Assembly: GCA_963733655.1 (NCBI GenBank) | Contig: CAVTEX010000005.1 | Location: 187,834-251,833, forward strand | Direction of reading: 5' to 3' | From: an uncultured Thermoleophilaceae bacterium | Lineage (GTDB): Bacteria; Actinomycetota; Thermoleophilia; Solirubrobacterales; Thermoleophilaceae | DNA length: 64,000 nt | In this document: positions 23,480-41,831 of the stretch, piece by piece | Layout of the letters: each line of letters begins with the position of its first letter | How positions within the stretch are numbered: the stretch's first letter is position 1 | Position numbers and translations under genes: made by a program | The notes under the pieces: generated by a model | What the model saw: only the letters and a program-made list of their open reading frames with translations | Databases searched by the model: none | What the model was told of the DNA's origin: nothing

Positions 23480-24392
23480 GGCGTGACCACTCCGGCGGTC
23501 TGTTCGTTGCGCGGCCTTGCGCGTGAGCACCTGCACGATGTCCAGGCGGCGCAGGTCGGCGAATGGCTTGAGGTGCACGCGCTGGTAGATGTCGACCTCG
23601 TCGAGGTCCACCTCGCTCACCCGGCCGATCGGGATGCCGCGCGGGAACAGCGAGTCGATCCGGTTCGTCCTGAAGCCCGACGTCACGACCACGGCGTTCT
23701 CGGTCACGCGGCCGCCGTGGACGAGGTCGAGGAGCAGGTCGCGCGGATCTCCCACCTCGGGGCGCACCACTCCGGCGGCGCCGGCGGGCATCACCTGGGC
23801 GCCGACTCCGACCGAGGCGTCGGTGATCAGAGTGACCGTCGCGTTTCCGCCGGTCACGCTCGTGACCTTGCCGGCCAGGCCTCCGGTGGCCGGACCGGAA
23901 TCGTCAGCGGCGGCCGCGATCACCGGCTGGTTGACCCGCAGCCCGTCGTCGGAGCCCTTGTCGATCTTGACCGCCGAGTACCAGACGTTGGGCGAGCGGG
24001 CGATCACGCGTGCCGCCACCGGCTCGGTGCCCTGCGGGAAGCCCTCCTCCTTCGACGAGCCCCACGAGACCCTTGAGCTGGCTGGCGTCGCGCTGGGCGG
24101 TGCGAGCCTCGGCGACCTCCTTGGTCAGGCGGTCGACCTCCTGCCTCAGGGCCTCGTTCTGGTCCTTGGCGTCGACCGTGTCGCCGACCCAGCCCACCAG
24201 GTCGCGCGCGGGCTTGAGCGCCCGGCTCGCGCCGGTCTCGATCGGTGCGAAGGTCTCCTGGGCGCCGCGCTGGAGCGCGTGGAAGAAGCCGCCGCCGGAC
24301 TCGCCGAAGTAGGCGGTCAGGATCGCGATCGAGAGCGCGACGAATACGGCGAGGGCGGCTCGCCTCCTGCGGATCGTCTTGCGGTCGTACAT
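23476..24392 (-). CDS. mreC: rod-shape-determining protein MreC (apparent frameshift ~24055; 3' end uncertain)
   Basis: ORF 23904..24392 gives the TM anchor plus coiled coil (ENEALRQEVDRLTKEVAEAR...QLKGLVGL). After a 1-nt slip it continues as SSKEEGFPQGTEPVAARVIARSPNVWYSAVKIDKGSDDG... in ORF 22892..24019. Confidence 0.8.
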
Positions 24393-27548: not shown

Positions 27549-28139
27549 CTACCTCGTCCAGCGCGGACGCAGCGAAAGCTCTCCGCGCGCGGCGGCTCGG
27601 ATCGTCCGTCGAAGCGCGGCGGCCACGCCCTCGGCGGGCAGGTCCACCTCGACCTCCACCGTCCCGAATTCCTCGTTGGTGAAGCGGACCACGCCGAGGT
27701 CGTCGATCAGCTCGAGCATGGGCCGATTGTCGGAGAGGATGGAGGCGCTGAAGCGGCGCACGCCCTCCTCGCGCGCACGGTCGCTCAGCCGCGCCAGCAG
27801 CGCGCCACCGACGCCGCGCCGCTGCCAGTCGTCGGCCACCGCCACCGCGAACTCCGCCTTGTCGGGCTCGTCCGGAAAGCGAACGAAGCGGGCCACGCCG
27901 ACCCCCATCCCGGTTTGCGGGTCCCGCGCGACCAGCGCCTCGTGGTCGTGATGGTCGACCTGAGTGAGGTAGTCGAGCTCCGCGTCCGACAGCTCGTTGG
28001 TGGGCGCCAGGAAGCGCCGGTAGCGCGACTCCGGACTCAGCCGCCGCAGCCCGGCGGCGAGCTCATCGCGGTCCTCGGCCTCGATGGGACGGATCTGGAT
28101 CTCGGACCCGTCGCTCAACGACACCGGGCCGGCCGTCAC
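27549..28139 (-). CDS. GNAT-family N-acetyltransferase (Pat/protein-acetyltransferase-like domain)
   Basis: C-terminal 196 aa of track ORF 27549..28724 from GTG 28139 (VTAGPVSLSDGSEIQIRPIEAEDRDELAAGLRRLSPESRYRRF...VADDWQRRGVGGALL). GTGA overlap with the folC stop. Confidence 0.8.
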   Translation of the reverse strand: MTAGPVSLSDGSEIQIRPIEAEDRDELAAGLRRLSPESRYRRFLAPTNELSDAELDYLTQVDHHDHEALVARDPQTGMGVGVARFVRFPDEPDKAEFAVAVADDWQRRGVGGALLARLSDRAREEGVRRFSASILSDNRPMLELIDDLGVVRFTNEEFGTVEVEVDLPAEGVAAALRRTIRAAARGELSLRPRWTR

Positions 28140-29382
28140 AGCATCGACGCGCGCGCAGCGGCTTCGTCGCGCACCAGGTCCGCCACCAGGTAGATCGAGC
28201 CCGTGGCGAGGACGCTCCCGTCGCGACCGGCCAGCTCCCGCGCACGCTCGAGAGCCGCGCGTGGCTCCGCCACGGTTTCTGAAGGCGGGCCGGAAAGCTG
28301 CTCCTCGAGCGAGGCCAGGGTCGCGGGCGAGAGTGAGCGGGGGTTGCGCGAGCGGGTGAAGACCACGCGATCGATGTGCGGCAGCAGCACGTCGAGCATT
28401 CCGGCCGCGTCCTTGTCGTCGAGCACGCCGATCACGGCGACGCGCGGCCGGCGCTCGCCGAGCACGTCGTCGAGCGAGGCGGCGAGCGCGAGCGAAGCCC
28501 GACGGGTTGTGAGCGCCGTCGAGCACGGTGAGCGGGCGATCGGCCACGATCTCCAGCCGCCCGGGCACGATCGTCTCCGCCGCAGCTCGCTCGACCGCCC
28601 GGCGATCCAGGGGCCGGTCGAGCATCGCCTCGGCCGCGGCCGCCGCGAGCGCGAAGTTGCCGCGCTGGAAGCGCCCGGCCGCACGCAGGTGCACGGCTCG
28701 GCGTCGCCGTCCGACGCGTACCAACCGCGCGTGGCGCTCGGCCGACGACGCGTTCGGCCACCGCGAGCGACTCGGGGTCGAGGTCGCCGACGACCAGCGT
28801 GGCGTGATCGGTGACCACGTCGAGCTTCTCCTCGGCGATGTCGGTCAAGGTCGGGCCGAGCCAGCGCGTGTGCTCCAGGCTGACCGAGGTGAGCACCTGG
28901 ACCTTCGACGGGATCACGTTGGTGGCGTCGAAGCGGCCACCCAGCCCGGCCTCGATCACGGCCACCTCCACCCCACGCCGGGCGAGCTCGTGGTAGGCCG
29001 CCGCCGTGAGCGCCTCGAACTGGGTCACGTGGTCGTCGGGCTCGGCGTTGCGGTTGACGAGCTCCGCCGCATGAGCGGCTCGCTCCACCGCAGCGGCGAA
29101 ATCGGCCTCGGAGACCGGCTCCTCCCCCACCTCGATTCGCTCCCGGAACGAGGCCAGGTGCGGCGACGTGTAGCTGCCCGTACCCAGCCCGTGGCGCTCG
29201 AGGATCGCCGCGAGGAAACGGACGGTCGACGACTTGCCATTGGAGCCCACCACGTGGACGGAGGCGAAGCGGCGTTGCGGCAGGCCCAGCACGGTCATCA
29301 GCCGGTGCATGCGGTCGAGCCCGAAGCGCATGCCGAACAGCTCCAGGCCGAGCAGGTACTCCTCGGCCTGGCGAAAGGTCAA
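28136..29382 (-). CDS. folC: bifunctional folylpolyglutamate synthase / dihydrofolate synthase, two apparent frameshifts (~28750, ~28505)
   Basis: Three frames join: [25 protein letters not shown]...VVGSNGKSST...LEHTRWLG (ORF 28432..29826); LVRVG...GRFQRGNFALAAAAAEAML...LDGAHNP (ORF 27549..28724); ASLALAASL...VIGVLDDKD...GSIYLVADL (ORF 28136..29656). TTG start overlaps the valS stop (TTGA). Confidence 0.85.
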
Positions 29383-32008
29383 GGCGAGCCCTCCAGGCGC
29401 CGCAGTGCCTCGCGGTACTCGTCGAGCTTGCGGCGCTCCTCGTCCACCACCTCGGGCGGGGCCTTGGCCACGAAGCCCTCGTTGGCGAGCTTGCGCTCGG
29501 CGCGCTGGATCTCGGCGCGGAGCTGCTCGCGCTTCTTGTCGATGCGGCGCAGAGCCTCGTCGGCGTCGAAGGCCTCGGAGGGCAGCACCTGCACCGCCCC
29601 GCCGGGGATCGGGACGCGTGGCAAGCACGTCGCCGTTCTGGGAGGCGTCCACCCACACGAAGCGGGCCAGCCGCGCGAGCTGATCACGCAGTGCGTCGTA
29701 GCCCTCTGCGGCCAGGCGCCCGCGCACCGGTGCGCTTGGCTTGGCGCTCACCTCGTCGCGGTAGCGCCGCAGCGCGGTGACCGCCTCGATCAGGCGGCTC
29801 GACCTCGGCTTCGGCCGGCTCGTCAAAGCGCGAGGGGTCGGCCTCGGGCCAGTCCGCCACCGCCAGCAGGCCGCGCTCGCCCGGCATCAGGCCCCAGATC
29901 TCCTCGGTCACGAAGGGCATCACGGGGTGGAGCAGGCGCAGCGTGCGCTCGAGAGCCCACAGCAGCACCGCCGAGACCTCGGCGTTGTCCTCCTCGTAGA
30001 GACGGGGCTTGGCCAGCTCGAGGTACCAGTCGCACAGCTCCGACCAGAACGCGGCGTAGAGCTCGAGCGTCGCGGCAGAGAAGCGAAAACCGTCGAGCAT
30101 CTCGGTGGCGCGCTCGGTGTGGCGCTCCAGGCGGGAGACGATCCAGCGATCCTCGACACTGCGCCCGGCCCGCGGATCGGGCTCCACGTCGGCTGCGCGC
30201 AGCAGGATCAGGCGCGAGGCGTTCCACAGCTTGTTGGCCAGGTCGCGGCCCTGCTTGACGCGCTCCTCGTTGAAGCGCACGTCCTGCGACGAGGACATCG
30301 CGAGCAGCCCGAAGCGCAGCGCATCCGCGCCGTAGGCCGGGAACTCGCCGCCCTGTTCGAATACCGGCGGTCGCGGCCCGCCGTGGATCAGCTCAGAGGG
30401 GTCGATGCCCGTGCCGAGTGACTTGGACATGCGCCGCCCGTCCGGCGCCTGGATCACCGAGTGGATGTTCACGTCCGAGAACGGGATCTCGCCGGTGAGC
30501 TCGACGCCGAACATGACCATGCGAGCCACCCAGAGGAAGATGATGTCGCGCGCCGTGGAGTTGACGTCCGTGGGATAGAACGCCCGCAGCTGCGGCGTTT
30601 CGGCGGGCCAGCCGAGCGTGGCGAACGGCCACAGTCCCGACGAGAACCAGGTGTCCAGCACGTCGGGGTCGCGCTCCCAGCCCTCTCCCTCCGGCGCGCG
30701 TCTCGGCCACGTGGGTCTCGTCACCGCGGTACCAGACGGGCAGCTGATGCCCCCACCACAGCTGGCGGGAGATGCACCAGGGACGGATGTTCTCGAGCCA
30801 GTTGAGGTAGACGCCGGTCCACGGCTTGCCGGGGTGGAACTCGATCGCCCGTCCTTCACCACCTCGATCGCCGGCGGGGCGAGTTGGTTCATGTCGCAGA
30901 ACCACTGGAGGGAGATGAGCGGCTCGATCCGGCGGCCGGAGCGATGCGAGTGAGGGACGTCGTGCTCGAAGGGCTGCGTCCCGGAGATCAGGCCCTCCGA
31001 ACGGAGGTCGGCGACCACCGCCCGCAGCGCCTCGTCCACCTCCATCCCGCGATAGCGCTCGGGCGCGGAGTCCGTGATGAGTCCGTCCTCCCCGATCACC
31101 GTGACCTCGTCGAGCCCGTGCGAGCGGCCGACCTCGAAGTCCGCCGGGTCGTGGCCGGGGGTGATCTTCAGAGCGCCGGTGCCGAACTCCGGATCCACAT
31201 GGTCGTCGGCGATGATCGGGAGCCGCCGGCCCACGAGCGGCAGGATCGCCGTCTCGCCGATCAGCCGTGAGTAGCGCTCGTCGCCGGGGTTCACCGCGAT
31301 GGCGGTGTCGGCGAGCATCGTCTCCGGGCGGACGGTCGCCACCGTGACCGAGCCCGAGCCCGACTCGAGCGGGTAGTCGAGCATGTAGAGCGTGTCCTCG
31401 ACCGTCCGCTGCTCGACCTCGAGGTCCGAGATCGCGGTGCGCAGGCCGGGATCCCAGTTGACCAGGTAGTTGTCGCGGTAGATCAGGCCCTTCTCGTACA
31501 GGCGGACGAACACGTGCGTCACGGCTCGCACGTACTCGTCGTCCATCGTGAAGCGCTCGTCCTCGTAGTCCAGCGAGGCGCCGAGCGCCTTGAACTGGCT
31601 CACGATCGTGTCTCCATACTCCTCGCGCCAGCGCCAGACGCGGCGGATGAACTCCTCGCGGCCGATCTCCTGCCGGCTCGTGCCCTGGGCCTCGAGCTGC
31701 TTCTCGACCTGGCGCTGGGTCGCGATCCCGGCGTGGTCGGTGCCGAAGATCCACTTGGCGCGCCGGCCGCGCATGCGGGCCACGCGAATTAGGGCGTCCT
31801 GGATCGAGGCGTTGAGCGCATGCCCCATATGGAGGTTGCCGGTCACGTTGGGCGGCGGAACGGCGATCGAGTAGTTCTCGTCGGCGGTGCCCTCCGGCTC
31901 CGGGTCGAAAATGCCCGCCTCCTCCCAGCGCGCAAAGACCCGGCCCTCCACCTCGGCGGGCTCGTAACGGGTGCGCTCCTCGAGCGTCTTCAGACGATCG
32001 TCGGCCAT
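29379..32008 (-). CDS. valS: valine--tRNA ligase, four apparent frameshifts (~30855, ~30703, ~29795, ~29625)
   Basis: [15 protein letters not shown] (HIGH) and MSKSLGT (KMSKS) in ORF 29684..32008. The missing segment [40 protein letters not shown] is in ORF 30393..32018. The C-terminal coiled coil [34 protein letters not shown] is in ORF 29379..29687. Confidence 0.95.
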
Positions 32009-32097: not shown

Positions 32098-32766
32098 TTA
32101 CGCCGGAAGCCCCTCGATGAACTCCACGAAGCGGCGCGGGTCCCGCAGCGGCGGTCCATGGCCGAAGCAGACGAGCTCCGGCTCGAGCGGTGCCAGTTTC
32201 CGCGCCGAGCGCCGGTTCTCCTCCGGGTCGGCGGTGAAGTAGGTCTTGGGCTCGTTGAGGCCGCGGACGCCCGTGACCACGTTGATTGCGTTGAGCACGT
32301 CGCCGATGATCAGCACGCGGTCCGACTCACGCCAGAAGACCACGTGGCCCGGCGAATGGCCCGGGGTCTCGATCACTCGGAACCCGGCCACCTCGTCACC
32401 CTCGCGGAGCACGCGATCGACGTTGCGGCCCGGACCGACCCAGTAGCGCATCGCCAGGCGGTTGAAGGGATGCGGAGCCTGGCTTTCGGCGATCGCCTCG
32501 GGACGCTCCGCCAGCTCCACGTCTCCCCGGCCGACCCAGAACGGGATCCGAAGCTTGCCGCAGACCTCGTCCGATGCGCCCTGATGATCGGGATGCGCAT
32601 GGGTGAGCGCGTGGGCGTTCACGGCTCTGCCCTTCAGCTGGCCGAGGATCCGCCGCCCGGCCCGCCGGGTGGCGGCGTCGATCAGCACGTCCTCGACGAG
32701 GTAGACATTGATGGCGTCCGGAGGAAAACCGCGTAGCTGCCACACCCCGTCGGCCAGCTGCTTCAT
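32098..32766 (-). CDS. MBL-fold metallo-hydrolase
   Basis: 222 aa. LTHAHPDHQG motif, ...TPGHSPGH..., ...GHG. Sits 16 nt downstream of the recombinase-like gene. Confidence 0.9.
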   Translation of the reverse strand: MKQLADGVWQLRGFPPDAINVYLVEDVLIDAATRRAGRRILGQLKGRAVNAHALTHAHPDHQGASDEVCGKLRIPFWVGRGDVELAERPEAIAESQAPHPFNRLAMRYWVGPGRNVDRVLREGDEVAGFRVIETPGHSPGHVVFWRESDRVLIIGDVLNAINVVTGVRGLNEPKTYFTADPEENRRSARKLAPLEPELVCFGHGPPLRDPRRFVEFIEGLPA

Positions 32767-32782: not shown

Positions 32783-34181
32783 TCATCGCTTCGGCCTCCG
32801 GTAGCCCGCGGCCGACTGGACGCTCGAGGGACGCCACTTCTGTCCTCCCCGCAGGGTGGGTACGCCTTCCTCGTTGAGTGCGTCGGCGATGGCCTGGAGG
32901 GTCATCCCCTCGGCCCGCATCTCCGCGATTTGCTCCTTCAGTGGTGGAACGTCCCGGACCGAGGGACGGCTGATCGAGCCCCCCTTCGCGCGTGCGGCCG
33001 CGAGACCCTTGCGCGTCCGCTCGCCGAGCCGCTGGTGCTCCCAGCCGCTCACCGAGACGATCACGTTGGCCGCCTTGCGTCCGGCCGGCTCGGCGGTGTC
33101 GATCCGATCCTGCAGCGAGACGAACCGCCCCCCGATTCGGCCGATCGACCTCAGGGCGCTGCCGAGTCCCGTCACCACCGGACTCAACTGCGGCAACGAC
33201 CACACGATCACGCACGAGGCCTCACCCGATTCCACGCGCTGCAGCGTGTGAGCCAAGCCCGGGGGGTTGGCCCGTGCGAGACGTTGCCCTTCGGCTTCGG
33301 TGACCATCTCAACCAACTGCCAGCCCCGCTCCTCGCATGCGGCGGAAATGGCCTCGCATCTGCTGCCAGACGTCCGGCCGCCCGCCCAGTCCGGAGCTCA
33401 CGTAGCCGATCGCCTTCACCATCTCCCGCTGCTTCGGCTTCTCGGGTACCCGGCGGCGTGGGTGACCGCTGGTCACCTGAGCCCGCCGTCGAACGGGCGC
33501 CGGAACCTCGGCGCCTCGATGTAGCGAGCGGTTCGTCTTGCCCTTGCTCAGCGGCGTCGCCCGGCCTCGAAGCGCTCCCACGAGCGCTGATCCCAGCAGC
33601 AGCGGCAGCACCAGCGCCAGCATCAGCTCCGGTTCAACCTCCTCCTCCTGTCCAGGCGCGGCCGCATCGGCGATCGAGGCACCAACGCCGGCCGGCTGCC
33701 GGCTGCGCTTGATCTCGACGGTCGGCCTGTCCGGCTTGCTGTTTGTGCTCCGGACCGGCTGCAACGCGGGCCGGCGAGCGGCGGCCATGAGACGACCCGC
33801 GGTCTGACGTCCGACGATCCCGTCGGCCGCGACGCCCGCGGCCCGCTGGAATCGAATGACGCCGGCCTCGGTGAGAGGCCCGTACAGGCCGTCGATGGGT
33901 CCCGGGCGCTTGCCGAGCCGGGTCAGCAGCCGTTGAAGCGCGGCCACGCGCCGTTTCTCGACCCCGACTTTTCTCGGCGCGGCCGCCGGGATCCAGTAGC
34001 CGGCGCCACGCGCGAGCGGCGGGATCGCATCCCGCGTGATCGGGGCGAGGGCGGTGCGGAACTCGGCTGTGTCGCCGGCAGTGGCCGCGAAGCCGCTGGC
34101 CGGCAGCAGAGTCAGGACCAGCACGGCCATCAGGGCCACCAGTCCGGCCCGGGCGAGGCCCAAGCCATATTTCCTTTGCAT
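32783..34181 (-). CDS. signal/anchor + PG_binding_1 domain + TM helix + catalytically degenerate serine-recombinase (resolvase)-like domain with C-terminal HTH; one apparent frameshift ~33375
   Basis: ORF 33309..34181 carries a hydrophobic N-terminus, VAALQRLLTRLGKRPGPIDGLYGPLTEAGVIRFQRAAGVAADGIVGRQTAGRL and TM LMLALVLPLLLGSALVGAL. It then runs in frame, with no stop, into MVKAIGYVSSG... Continuation EAISAACEERGWQLVEMV...DRIDTAEPAGR...ERTRKGLAAARAKG...MTLQAIADALNEEGVPTLRGGQKW is in ORF 32783..33316. Confidence 0.6.
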
Positions 34182-34252
34182 GGTTACTCCTCATCGAGCG
34201 ATTGGCCCGTGTGCGTCCGGCACACGGGCAGGCGTGGTCGAGCCCGGTGGGG

Positions 34253-36373
34253 CTAGCCAGGCCGCTCGATGACGGCGACGAACGCCGTGGGGCGCCAGGG
34301 CGCCGGCGCGTAACGCAGGCGCCGGCTGTGGCGCAGGGCGGCGAGGGCCGCCAATGAGGCGAGAAGCGCGAAGAGGGTGCTGAAGCCGACGCCGGATCCG
34401 CCGGCGGACGCGCCGCCGGAGCTGGGCGCCGGAGTCGGCGGGCTCTGCGGGCCGCCGGCCGTGGGAGCCGATGATCCCCCGCGGTGCGGCAGGATCTCCG
34501 GCCAGCGTTGCGAACGGATGTGCGGCGTTCGGCGCAGCGAAGGGCGATGCGGGGGCCGTGTCGGGGCTGGCGGTGGCGCCCGAGGGGTTCACGGGATCCG
34601 CGGCGTTCGGGACGCCCGCGGCGGACCTGGGGTCGGCCGGAGCCGTGAGCGGGCCGGGAGCTGCGACGCCCGCTTCACCGGGAGAGGGCGCTGTGCCCAG
34701 GGGCGGAGACCGGCGCCGCCGCGTCGCCGCGCGAAGCCGGAGCTGCACTGCCGCCGGGGCCCTCGCCGCTGGGATCGCCCGTCGAGGGGAGCAATGACGG
34801 AAGCGATTCCGTGGCCGGCGTGAGGATGGTGCCCAGCGGCGGCAGCGCCTGTCCGATGCCGCCCGCGATCGGTGCGACCGACATCGAGAACGGGCGCCAG
34901 GGCTCCGCTGACGGGCTGCAGCACCGGCCCGATGAGACCACCCGTCTGTTGGAGCACGGGGCTGAGCAGCCCGCCGGCGGCGCCCGTCACGGGGGCCAGA
35001 AGATCATCGGCAGTGTCGGCGACCGGCGCCAGCAGGCCGCCCGCCGTGTCGGCCACCGGGGCCAACAGCTCGTCCGGCGCGTGTCGAGCGACCGGCGCGA
35101 GCAGGTCACCGGCCGGTGTCGGCCACCGGCGCCAACAGCTCGCCCGCCGCGTCCGCGACCGGGGCGAGCAGGTCGCCGGCGGTGTCGGCCACCGGCGCCA
35201 ACAGCTCGCCCGCCGCGTCGGCACCGGGGCCAGCAGGTCGCCGGCGGTATCGGCCACCGGCGCCAACAGCTCGTCCGTCGCGTCCGCGACCGGGGTGAGC
35301 AGGTCACCGGCGGTATCGGCCACCGGGGTGAGCAGCTCGTCCGCCGCATCGGCCACCGGGCTGAGCAGCTCGTCCGCCGCATCGGCCACCGGCGCCAGCA
35401 GCTCGTCCGTCGCGTCGGCCACCGGGCTGAGCAGCTCGTCGGTCGCGTCGCTCAGCGGCGCGACCAGGTCGTCCGAGGCATCGGCCGCGGGCGTGAGAAC
35501 GTCGTTTGCGGTCTCGGCAAGAGGAGCGAGGAGGTCGTCAGTCGCGTCGGTCACCGGTCCCAGCGCCTGGTCAGCGACGTCGGTCAGGGGGGTCAGGGTC
35601 TCATCGACCGACTCGGCGACGGGCGTCAGGACCGGGGCGGTGGCCTCGGTGAGCGGCGCCAGCAGCTCGCCGGTGGCCTCCGTTGCCGGGGCGACGAGGT
35701 CTGCGGCCGGCTCCGTCAGCGGAGTCACGACGTCCTCGGCGGTGTTGGCCAGGGGCGCTGTGACGTCATCGGCGGCCTCGGTCGCGGGCACCACGAGCTC
35801 GGTTGCCGTATCGACGAGCGGAGCGACCGGCAGGTCGGGGGTCGCGATTGGGGCCGCGGGGACCTCGGCGGTTTCCTCGGCGATGGCCGCGGGCGGCTCG
35901 TCGCCGGCGCCGGTAACCGGGGTGAGCGCGTCCAGGGCGTCGGCGGCCGTCTCGGTGACCGCGGCCGGTGGGGGAGCGGGCGGCTCAGCTGGCGTGGGCA
36001 GCTCAACGGGCGCTGCCGGCTCAACGGGAGCCGGGGGCTCAACGGGAGTGGGCGGCGCCGGCTCGGCGGTGGGCGTTGGCGGGGCCGGGGCGGCCGGGGC
36101 GGGCGCCGGGGTCGCCGGCGGCGGCGCGGGTGCGGGCGGCTCTGCCGGCGGTGGCGCCGGCAGAGCCTGGGTGGCCTGCTGGACGACCTCCGGGACGACC
36201 CCCACCGGGTCCGGCAGCGAGGGCGTCGACACCCCGGGAAGTTGTGCCGCGGCAGTTGGGGCCCAGGCCGCCAGCGCTGCGCCCGTGACGGCGGCGACGG
36301 CGGCCACCCGTCGGAGGCCGGTCTCCCGGCCGCGGGGTCTGCGGCGAACGATGCTGAGGGCTCCCTGGTTCAT
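34253..36373 (-). CDS. secreted, C-terminally anchored repeat protein: signal peptide, Pro/Ala linker, ~30 acidic 11-residue repeats (PVADxxDELLx), Gly/Pro/Ser region, TM helix and short basic tail; several apparent frameshifts
   Basis: ORF 34589..36373 (MNQGALSIVRRRPRGRETGLRRVAAVAAVTGAALAAWAPTAAAQ..., then repeats). Tail reconstructed from ORFs 34675..34941 and 34191..34748 plus own translation ending ...GGSGVGFSTLFALLASLAALAALRHSRRLRYAPAPWRPTAFVAVIERPG* (stop 34253-34255). Confidence 0.7.
34890..35820 (-). repeat. 33-bp in-frame tandem repeat array (coding the 11-residue repeats)
   Basis: Plus-strand unit about GTCGGCCACCGGCGCCAACAGCTCGTCCGTCGC. It is most regular at 35000-35450 and degenerates toward 35820. 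Local 1-nt indels turn some units into RRASCWRRWPTP-type off-frame copies. Confidence 0.85.
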
Positions 36374-36542
36374 GGTGCCTATCGGTGATCGACTCTCGAC
36401 CTACCCGGACCGGCCCTCGCTCGGGCACGCGTACGCAACTAACTTGAATCAGTTTCCCGCAATTTGCGACTTTTGGGCGCCTCGTAAGCTGTGCAGATAT
36501 ACGCAACTCGTCACCGCCAGCCCGACCTCGATAATCCACGAG

Positions 36543-36903
36543 GTGTCCCCGGCGACCGAGGCCGAGCTGCTCCGAAGGGCGAAGACCCGCCTGGACCGGC
36601 TGGACTTCTATCCCGAGCCCGTGCGCATCGACGGCGTCCGGATACGGGTCACCCCGTGGCTCTTCCGCATCCCCGGCTTTAAACGCTTTCGCGGGTACGC
36701 CACCCGCCAGAACATCTGGCTCAAGCACAGTCCGCCCGGACGAACGTCTGATCGCGCACGAGCTGTGCCACGTCTGGCAGCTCCAGCACCGCCCGCTGCG
36801 AGTCTGGCTCTCGTACGCCCGGCCCTCGACCTTCAGCGCCGACAGGACGGCGTACCGCGCCAACCGCTACGAGATCGAGGCGCGCCGCGCGGCGGACTCG
36901 TGA
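36543..36903 (+). CDS. small HExxH protein (DUF4157-like zinc-metallopeptidase-fold motif), one apparent frameshift ~36729
   Basis: GTG 36543: VSPATEAELLRRAKTRLDRLDFYPEPVRIDGVRIRVTPWLFRIPGFKRFRGYATRQNIWLKH. After a 1-nt slip: VRPDERLIAHELCHVWQLQHRPLRVWLSYARPSTFSADRTAYRANRYEIEARRAADS* (HELCH at 36757-36771). Divergent from the repeat-protein gene. Confidence 0.55.
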
Positions 36904-36912
36904 AACCGCCGC

Positions 36913-38199
<1,287 letters not shown>

Positions 38200-40422: not shown

Positions 40423-41831
40423 TCAGGAGCCTGGAGTCCAGATCTCGCCGGAGCTTTGGGCCGCTCCCTCCTCCTCCTTGTCCGGCGTCCAGAGCTTGTC
40501 CCGTGCGGCGGCCTTCTCGGCCGCGATGGGCTTGGCGTGCTCCACCAGCAGGTCCACGGCCTTGCGCATCGCGATGTCCTCGCGCAGCGCCTCGTCGGCC
40601 CCCTGGGAGCGCGCTCGCTTCAGGGCGCGCTTGAGCTGCTTCTCGGACGCGTCGGGGGGAGCGGCGGCTCGCAGCGCCTCGTTGACCTCTTCGTCGGAGA
40701 CCTCGATCCCCTCCGCATCGACGATCGCCGACAGCACCGCCTCGCGCTTGAGGGCCAGCTCGGCGTCGGGCTCCGACTCCGTGGCGAGCTCCTCCTCGGT
40801 CTTTCCGGTCATCTCGAGGTAGCGCGCCGGATCCACGCCCTGCGCCTCGAGCCGGCGTGCGGTCCGGTGCCACATCTCGTGAGCCTTCGAATGGACGAGA
40901 TCGTGGGGCACCTCCACGGTGGCCTGGGCCACCACGGCGTCCACCGCCGCCTCGCGGAACTCGCTCTCGATCGAGCGCTCCTCTGCTTCCGCGAGCCGCT
41001 GCTCGATATCGGAGCGCAGCTCGTCGAGCGAGTCGTAGCCGCCGGCCTGCTCGGCCAGCTCGTCGTCGAGCTCCGGCAGGGCCTTCTCCTTGACCTCCTT
41101 GACGTCCACGTCGAAGACCGCTTCTCGGCCCGCCAGATGCTCGGCCTGGTAGTCGTCGGGGAAGGTCACGGTCACCGCGCGCGACTCGCCCGCGCGAGCG
41201 CCCTGGAGCTGCTCCTCGAAGCCAGGGATCAGCCGGTCCGGAGCCCAGCTCGGCCACGTGCCCCCGCGCCTCGCCGCCGGCGAAAGCCTCGCCGTCGAGA
41301 CGGCCCACGAAGTCCATGACGAGGAAGTCTCCTTCGCCGGCCTCGCGGTCGACGTTCTCGAGCGAGGCGAGGGACTCGCGCACGCGCTCCAGCTCGGCCT
41401 GCACCTCGTTCGGGTCGGGCGACGGCTCGCGGCGCCCGACCTCCACGCCCTTGTACTCGGCCAGGCGCGCCGGGGGCACGATCCCGACCTCGATCGAGAA
41501 GCCGAGCGAGGCGCCCTGCTCGGGCAGGTCGGTGAGATCGATCTTGGGATCGCCGACGGTGGTGATCCCGGCCTCGTGGATCGCCTGCTCGTACCAGCCC
41601 GGGAAGCCCGCGGCGCACCGCCTCGTCGAGCACGGCCTCGCGGCCCACCTGGCGGATCACGACCTGGGCCGGCACCTTGCCCTTTCGAAAGCCGGGCACG
41701 CGCATCTCGCGGCCGAGTTCGGAGGCGGCGGTCTCGAGTTCGCGCTCGAGCGCGGCACTCGGCACCTCGACCTCCAACCGGACACGCGAGTCTCCGAGTT
41801 CCGTGGTCTTCGTGGTCACTGCTGCGGCCAT
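40423..41831 (-). CDS. tig: trigger factor, two apparent frameshifts (~41612, ~41238)
   Basis: N-terminus MAAAVTTKTTELGDSRVRLEVEVP...MRVPGFRKGKVP (ORF 41229..41966 from ATG 41831). PPIase part ...LAEYKGVEVGRREP...DFLVMDFVGRLDGEAFAGGEA (ORF 40385..41479). C-terminal part in ORF 40423..41175. Confidence 0.9.

Follow-up and report, generated by a model that had tools for sequence, protein, structure and literature searches.

A serine pseudo-recombinase behind a peptidoglycan-binding domain and a predicted transmembrane helix in Thermoleophilia

Serine recombinases are known as mobile-element enzymes and as phase-variation switches, and regulators such as ToxR, TcpP and CadC are bitopic membrane proteins whose single chain carries a sensor-like domain outside the cytoplasm and a DNA-binding-type domain inside it. 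Here we describe a gene of an uncultured Thermoleophilaceae bacterium, located at 34181..32783 on the minus strand of a 64,000-nucleotide stretch of contig CAVTEX010000005.1 (hereafter the window, meaning the whole stretch analysed), in which a serine recombinase fold deprived of its catalytic residues is part of a predicted membrane protein. From its open reading frames (ORFs), frame analysis, homologs and synteny, the whole gene (32783..34181) reads signal peptide, PG_binding_1 domain, transmembrane (TM) helix, linker, dead serine recombinase and helix-turn-helix (HTH), an architecture of which we are highly confident.

Compared with described serine recombinases (gamma-delta/Tn3, Gin/Hin, TP901-1, Bxb1, SPbeta, phiC31), the family has the same catalytic fold and long E-helix, and Gly5, Tyr6, Asp36, Glu118, Glu124 and Arg125 are common to both. 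A C-terminal helical unit is homologous to the start of the 'recombinase domain' of large serine recombinases, cut after ~40 residues, and the pseudo-recombinase probably derives, judging from these sequences, from a large serine recombinase. Unlike the described enzymes, it is fused behind a signal peptide, a peptidoglycan (PG)-binding domain and a TM helix, and it resides at a stable core locus where no mobile element or recombination sites were found. Since the enzymatic hallmarks fail and recombination sites were not found, the labels recombinase and invertase are inappropriate for the gene.

Functionally, the protein would most resemble the ToxR-type bitopic one-component regulators: its predicted topology is bitopic like theirs, and a second bitopic partner is encoded alongside, as ToxS is with ToxR. 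Unlike the ToxR type, the presumed DNA-binding module sits at the C-terminus and the sensor-like domain at the N-terminus, after a signal peptide, a dead recombinase plus HTH replaces the OmpR-type winged helix, and regulation is here inferred from sequence. RodZ is likewise a bitopic envelope protein with a cytoplasmic HTH, and the primary locus of the present family lies near mreBCD-PBP2; however, the two share no sequence relationship and have opposite orientations, RodZ has neither a recombinase-like domain nor PG_binding_1, and the link to MreB is positional only. With the Noc/ParB tethers the shared concept is that of a plasmid- or mobile-element-derived protein reused to hold DNA at the membrane, but the folds are unrelated, Noc uses an amphipathic helix rather than an integral or wall-binding part, and tethering by the present protein is hypothetical.

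Literature searches returned no published description of a PG-binding or membrane-anchored dead serine recombinase, in agreement with an earlier sequence-only reading of this stretch, which knew of no described example. A review of mobile-element exaptation in prokaryotes lists active serine invertases and no inactivated serine recombinase (PMC8987985). By its sequences this is a large, undescribed, lineage-specific Thermoleophilia family with a defined operon, expanded in an abundant and poorly cultured class of soil Actinomycetota. In it a recombinase fold is retained for a non-catalytic job, behind a wall-binding ectodomain and a TM helix and fixed at a core locus, which could reveal envelope-to-DNA coupling in Thermoleophilia. 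Such genes are mislabelled 'DNA invertase' or 'recombinase family protein' in databases, and indels in long-read metagenome-assembled genomes (MAGs) break them into misleading fragments.

A fusion protein with a catalytically dead recombinase domain

Two ORFs, amounting to ~466 codons once one base is removed, are read as one protein. ORF1 (34181..33309, 290 aa; all features of the gene, its partner and the spacer between them lie on the minus strand) contains a signal-like segment, PG_binding_1, a second hydrophobic helix and a basic stretch, and ORF2 (33316..32783, 177 aa) contains Resolvase and the start of the Recombinase domain. Three-frame translation shows that MVKAIGYVSSG (from 33422) continues the basic linker of ORF1 with zero stop codons between them, as the sequence-only reading had stated. 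The frame switch is not at the stop/TTG overlap (33309-33316): the extra base lies ~45 nt upstream, where three-frame translation and comparison with homologs P0001 and P0002 locate a one-base insertion, CAGCAGATG-C-GAGGCC, at ~33353-33356. Upstream of its TTG, ORF2 continues as an open frame that reads (C)EAISAACEERGWQLVEMV, typical of serine recombinase helix A and strand 2, and the ORF1 frame decays past the switch to RGHFRRMRGAGLAVG and a stop.

A homolog search with the frame-corrected 466-aa query returned 1306 proteins, the best of which (P0001, P0002, P0003 and P0004 at 81%, 75%, 74% and 70% identity, respectively) span 100% of the query. Intact homologs number in the dozens (P0001-P0019 and others); they likewise cover the whole query, are 450-480 aa long and 59-81% identical and carry PF01471 and PF00239 in one polypeptide, and the two families occur on a single chain in more than 100 homologs. 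The co-occurrence suggested for a check by the earlier reading, and its proposal of one gene across both ORFs, are thereby borne out. The Met of MVKAIGY is kept in only 1/117 homologs, thus there is no conserved internal start.

An AlphaFold2 model was built for the intact homolog P0002 from a 51-sequence alignment. The signal peptide or anchor MQRKYGLGLARAGLVALMAVLVLTLLPASGFAA (aa 1-33, 34083..34181) has a Kyte-Doolittle peak of 2.3 and corresponds to helix 11-24 in the P0002 model; an AxA-like 'GFA-A' site can be read in this segment, and signal cleavage is inferred from it. The PG_binding_1 domain (aa 78-131, 33789..33950; PF01471, E 7.7e-16), predicted to be extracytoplasmic, scores 58.5 bits against a Pfam gathering score of 23, which establishes family membership and makes PG binding itself a prediction. 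Its columns include invariant ones across the family, its model is confident (predicted local distance difference test, pLDDT, > 90) and Foldseek matched it to the PG-binding protein 5tv7.

A TM helix LMLALVLPLLLGSALVGALR follows (aa 186-205, 33567..33626), with a Kyte-Doolittle 19-mer peak of 2.46 and an AlphaFold helix at 185-207 in P0002. Its flanks in the window are acidic outside (charge -6) and basic inside (charge +4). A strongly hydrophobic 19-mer lies between the PG-binding and recombinase domains in 116/116 members, in which the preceding 15 residues average a charge of -2.4 and the following 15 one of +1.9, and the positive-inside rule is obeyed in 111 of the 116. From the hydrophobic 19-mer and this charge bias, therefore, the protein is predicted to be bitopic, with the PG-binding domain N-out and the pseudo-recombinase C-in. 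The anchor, the PG_binding_1 repeat, the second TM helix and a wall-binding domain outside with the recombinase inside had all been proposed from the letters alone and hold, the last as a predicted topology. The TM helix is followed by a basic, disordered cytoplasmic linker (33423..33566; pLDDT < 50 for P0002 residues 208-251) whose length varies from 29 to 160 aa across the family.

The serine recombinase fold (32999..33422) was recovered by Pfam, by phmmer to Gin (4m6f), by hhalign and by AlphaFold with Foldseek. ORF2 matches Resolvase PF00239 at positions 49-144 of 145 (E 1.1e-11), and the P0002 model has a recombinase core with a long E-helix at 257-401, pLDDT > 90 in the cores and disordered linkers. 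Against the PDB, Foldseek matched the TP901-1 integrase catalytic domain 3bvp (TM-score 0.83, 2.9 A), the Bxb1 and SPbeta integrases (~240 aligned columns, reaching the recombinase domain) and the gamma-delta, Tn3 and Sin resolvases.

Within this fold the catalytic set is missing, GYVSSG being found in place of GYxRVS and SLPQLSP (33199..33179) in place of LDRLxR. HMMER against PDB chains aligned SLPQLSP with the LDRLGR of both Gin invertase (4m6f, E 1e-12) and gamma-delta resolvase, as proposed for LPQLSP and DRLGR by eye, and MAFFT aligned GYVS with GYARVS. hhalign (probability 96.9) paired the family consensus GYVSVP with GYARVS, with Ser10 opposite Pro. Residues were counted in 119 family members aligned to gamma-delta resolvase, whose residues 47-144 were checked against PDB alignments. 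Gly5, Tyr6 and Glu118 are invariant (119/119) and kept in the window. Arg8 is never Arg (0/119; Ser in 65, Thr in 51) and is Ser in the window; Ser10 is Pro in 75/119 and Ser in 13/119, and is Gly in the window. Asp67 is absent throughout (0/119) and replaced by Pro in the window, and Arg71, which is Pro in 57, Arg in 31 and His in 12 members, is also Pro. Other positions are mostly conserved in the family and altered in the window protein: Asp36 (Asp 114, Glu 5; window Glu), Arg45 (114/119; window Pro), Arg68 (Arg 103, Gln 11; window Gln) and Arg119 (Arg 101, His 14; window His). Glu124 and Arg125 are mostly kept, and so in the window.

The window protein thus has GYVSSG in place of a GYxRVS nucleophile motif, ~90% of the family is without Ser10, and Arg8, Arg68 and Arg71 are missing from the window together with Asp67. 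The loss of Arg8, Ser10, Asp67, Arg68 and Arg71 claimed by the sequence-only reading persists after frame correction and goes further than it had, Arg45 also being replaced. By alignment the recombinase domain is a pseudo-enzyme family-wide. In Tn3 resolvase, Y6, R8, S10, D36, R68 and R71 are each crucial to cleavage and recombination, and none of the mutations abolished binding to the site (PMC2794168).

The E-helix GWEHQRLGERTRKGL (33046..33002), part of the catalytic-domain fold, is retained in the window with Glu118, Glu124 and Arg125, as previously suggested. The most conserved block of the family is the SRPSV arm followed by a three-helix HTH, PPLKEQIAEMRAEG / MTLQAIADALNEEG / WRPSSVQSAAGY (32801..32971; helices 415-426, 431-440 and 454-460 in the P0002 model). 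Invariant columns are concentrated in this HTH, and the block G-M-T-L-Q-A-I-A-D-x-L-N-x-x-G-V-P-T-x-R-G-G-x-x-W-R-x-S-S-V-Q is nearly invariant across all architectures. The C-terminal HTH of the earlier reading is indeed retained but is of another kind, being the N-terminal helical part of the large serine recombinase 'recombinase domain' and not a resolvase HTH_7. ORF2 matches Recombinase PF07508 at positions 8-46 of 102 (E 2e-6) and the protein ends ~10 residues later; no complete recombinase domain, zinc ribbon or coiled coil was found in it, and in NCBIfam there is weak, sub-threshold similarity to XisF and CcrB only.

A two-gene operon with an RNA element and a promoter palindrome

Directly upstream of the fusion gene lies a partner gene (34253..36373), frameshifted in the window and delimited by tblastn with the partners of loci L001 and L002. 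Its product, a secreted repeat protein, consists of a signal peptide, ~11-aa Ala/Asp/Thr/Leu/Pro repeats, a Gly/Ser/Pro-rich region, a TM helix and a cytoplasmic tail, near-invariant in the tail alignment (APWRPxAFVAVIERPG), which is APWRPTAFVAVIERPG in the window (34300..34253), the tail peptide being RRLRYAPAPWRPTAFVAVIERPG. The repeats are locus-specific arrays of 11-16 aa with wholly different units between loci, such as ADATDELLAPV in the window and PPVGQILTPVVEVL in L004. No significant Pfam domain was found in the partner, which gave a weak Apolipoprotein repeat match only, and a homolog search with its TM helix and tail (73 aa) returned no match, low complexity and fragmented gene calls being the likely reason.

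Based on tblastn within the fetched loci, the partner tail gene is upstream of the fusion gene in 48 of 50 PG-binding-type loci and, as the other two are contig ends, in 48/48 evaluable ones; it also precedes two soluble pseudo-recombinases (L068, L084). By this gene order the partner and fusion genes form, in that order, a conserved two-gene operon.

The intercistronic spacer (34182..34252) has a constant length of ~72 nt in a 22-locus alignment (A2). It begins with a stop-codon hairpin (34254..34241) followed by the near-invariant GACCAGGAC, continues with a covarying 9-bp hairpin (34228..34206, RNAalifold) and ends in CGCTCGATGAGGAG with a ribosome-binding site (~34192..34187). Over the 22 loci, RNAalifold shows five pairs of the 9-bp hairpin with compensatory changes as well as G-U pairs on the sense strand, which argues that the structure is one of the RNA. 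An Rfam scan of this intercistronic leader found no family, only a sub-threshold gyrA RNA match (E 0.9). The element may serve mRNA processing, mRNA stability or translational coupling.

The palindrome CGCAAATTGCG (CGCAAWTTGCG, 36458..36468) lies in the operon promoter region, ~90 nt 5' of the partner start codon, in an AT-rich block of a window with 70.6% GC, and is the sole exact copy in the 64 kb. TTGCGTA half-sites flank it (36496-36507 and 36429-36439), the conserved frame around it is AAAAGT-palindrome-GGAAAA, and ~50 nt past it lies a conserved GGGTA box (36397-36408) that recalls the -10 elements of the SigB/SigF type. A single palindrome is present in each of ~30 partner-containing loci, non-syntenic paralogs and two soluble pseudo-recombinase loci among them; 33 matches were found in 1.14 Mb, where base composition would predict an estimated ~1-2. 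We regard the palindrome as a candidate operator. The TTGCGTA half-sites cluster near some operons, their overall enrichment being unconvincing against the estimated ~49 expected in 1.14 Mb.

A sigma-70 scan gave one promoter-like site, on the plus strand at 36508-36535, which plausibly serves a divergent small gene and not the operon. This gene (~36560-36989, plus strand) has an HExxH motif, HELCHVWQ, and probably encodes a small zinc metallopeptidase. It stands beside the operon only in the subgroup of the window (L002, L006, L008, L014, L016), other subgroups having different genes at that place.

Candidate functions

The cytoplasmic module most likely still binds DNA because its core, E-helix, GRP/SRP arm and HTH are constrained while the chemistry is gone. 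We propose that it would do so as a dimer, without cutting and held at the membrane, and that the state of the cell wall or surface could be coupled to DNA, sensing being by the PG-binding domain, by the partner or by both; the partner tail probably makes contact with the pseudo-recombinase. The protein would then be a membrane-tethered transcription regulator acting on the CGCAAWTTGCG common to all paralogous operons, its own included. Autoregulation of a small regulon is suggested by an HTH invariant across paralogs and a palindrome at every paralogous operon promoter. Among single mechanisms this is the likeliest, held tentatively at somewhat under even chances. The broader description, a bitopic dead recombinase in a conserved operon serving as a DNA-coupled membrane regulator, we regard on balance as probable. 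We speculate further, as a possible but doubtful extension, that Thermoleophilia made a large serine recombinase into a non-catalytic output module which, with the partner, would form a trans-envelope system tied to CGCAAWTTGCG.

If true, signalling or tethering between envelope and chromosome would have a new class of device, one that uses the binding and synapsis of a recombinase without cleavage, and a domesticated, inactivated serine recombinase would for the first time be linked to a cellular role. Recombinase researchers would gain from it a naturally occurring 'binding and synapsis only' variant. With the partner gene, the RNA hairpin and the candidate operator as defined parts, the case lends itself to direct testing.

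Several points weigh against this explanation. The HTH is nearly invariant among paralogs with differing N-terminal modules, which is unusual for diversified specific regulators and which a common DNA motif or a tether would explain no less well. With its 11 bp the palindrome is compact: the centres of its half-sites are ~6 bp apart, whereas the sites of serine recombinase dimers measure 25-34 bp, so it may be bound by another factor. A Ser or Thr two residues after Gly-Tyr, present in 116/119 members, can be aligned to Ser10 if a two-residue deletion is assumed; in the alignment, however, Ser and Thr interchange freely and no member retains Arg8 or Asp67, which argues that it is structural. 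Finally, the ratio omega of nonsynonymous to synonymous rates, 0.17-0.26 against the closest orthologs and below 0.66 in all 105 pairs, speaks for constraint, but these values are qualitative only because synonymous divergence (dS) is near saturation.

Noc and RacA tether DNA. By analogy with them the protein might be a structural tether, in which the DNA-binding and dimer/tetramer (synapsis) abilities of the dead recombinase would anchor the chromosome to the membrane and, by way of the PG-binding domain, to the wall, in the service of nucleoid organisation, segregation or division-site control. The almost invariant HTH over different membrane anchors, pointing to one DNA target or to general binding, would suit such a role, as would the retained E-helix residues, the several paralogs per genome (at least five loci in MAG MFD09212.bin.1.240) and the position of the primary copy in the clpX-valS-folC-ndk-maf-mreBCD-PBP2 region. 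But the palindrome is found once per operon promoter, in the manner of an operator and not dispersed, with one exact copy in 64 kb, and mreBCD is close by in a gene order whose conservation does not depend on the fusion gene. Tethering as the main function appears unlikely to us, though it is the strongest of the alternatives to the regulator.

The cytoplasmic HTH of RodZ binds MreB, and by the same analogy the module might bind no DNA and instead be a protein-interaction module for the partner tail and/or a cytoskeletal or wall-synthesis protein, giving a structural complex across the envelope. We consider this improbable: the GRP/SRP arm, Arg125 and the basic C-terminus RGGQKWRPSS...YRRPKR, all features of DNA contact, are kept, and in 32 loci the module stands without a partner gene in its vicinity. 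On its side are the absolute linkage to the partner and the near-invariant APWRPxAFVAVIERPG tail, the soluble pseudo-recombinases L068 and L084 that follow a partner gene, consistent with recruitment by the tail, and the invariance of the HTH across paralogs, which would suit a conserved protein partner.

The frameshift itself could be real, the window copy then being a pseudogene or, alternatively, a PG-binding membrane protein next to an N-terminally truncated recombinase-like protein. The extra base is outside any homopolymer run, and a deposited protein, P0007, equals the 290-aa ORF. However, the window is collinear across ~22 genes with L002, a 1.24-Mb Thermoleophilaceae MAG contig, and at least four housekeeping genes of the window, mreC (23516-24392), folC (28139-29382), valS (29382-32008) and tig (40426-41831), are each spread over two to three frames, as are the fusion and partner genes, all being intact in L002. 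The relatives' genomes are 'MFD' MAGs, which we take to be long-read assemblies. Apart from the one frameshift, neither half of the fusion gene contains a stop, every family-invariant residue is retained and omega has the low values given above (0.17-0.26 for the closest orthologs). Because tig, valS, folC and mreC are also frameshifted, the split into two ORFs is most likely a one-base assembly indel and no biological frameshift, and we give the opposite very little credence; for the same reason, such indels being evidently frequent here, ORF-based readings across the window need caution.

That the protein is an active recombinase or invertase, using the post-Gly-Tyr Ser/Thr of 116/119 members as nucleophile and phase-varying its repeat-rich surface partner, can practically be dismissed. 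In its favour, Tyr6 and Asp36 are kept, most members also have Arg45 and Arg68, and the partner is a variable repeat surface protein. Against it, no member has Arg8 or Asp67 and most have lost Arg71, and the window protein is in addition without Arg45, Arg68 and Arg71. Ser and Thr interchange freely at the candidate site, which points to a structural part, and Tn3 resolvase depends on each of R8, S10, R68 and R71 (PMC2794168). The locus keeps a stable, collinear arrangement over ~30 genomes, and a search around the operon and its promoter for inverted repeats, as of an invertible segment or recombination sites, returned only GC-rich noise of 71-81% complementarity.

Distribution and genomic setting

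A scan of species-representative genomes yielded 325 loci, the best 80 of which are all from Thermoleophilia (Thermoleophilaceae, Solirubrobacterales, Baekduia), and an exhaustive profile search gave 2633 representative clusters at E <= 1e-30. In ~30 Thermoleophilaceae genomes the gene is found between clpX and valS, upstream of folC-ndk-maf-mreBCD-PBP2, and because it holds the same place in all of these it is a vertically inherited core gene and not a mobile element. Additional copies occur at other genome positions, as in the MAG with at least five loci mentioned above.

Loci matching the pseudo-recombinase part only encode the same dead module in soluble proteins of 220-280 aa. Another architecture consists of a signal peptide, a short ectodomain, a TM helix, a long low-complexity linker and the dead module, and further ones are tandem copies and a form with two N-terminal TM helices. 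Taken together, the sequences point to a lineage-specific expansion of the dead recombinase-HTH module in Thermoleophilia. Variants of the module are found in L036, L045, L048, L050-L054, L056-L058, L061-L063, L073, L074 and L079. The linkers of the other membrane-anchored forms are long and AAAREEK- or Pro-rich; tandem duplications occur in L052 (Baekduia) and L073, and several loci have two module genes 1-4 kb apart.

A functional tie to clpXP or mreBCD was considered from the neighbourhood and rejected, since the gene order is conserved regardless and paralogous operons are located elsewhere. PADLOC defence models gave no match for the fusion protein, the partner or the neighbouring metallo-beta-lactamase (MBL)-fold hydrolase; with no such match and a core, syntenic locus, the idea of a defence island was dropped. 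In the window the gene for this hydrolase (Lactamase_B; 32098-32766, minus strand) separates the fusion gene from valS, and in other genomes it is beside clpX, on the opposite side of the pair, being linked to the locus in no fixed order. A 121-aa ORF with weak Resolvase and Recombinase matches and the WRxSSVQ motif of the HTH block is present in L004 (11714-12079, minus strand) and L020 (~9772, minus strand), convergent with the fusion gene and ~2 kb downstream of it, and may be a fragment or a minimal paralog.

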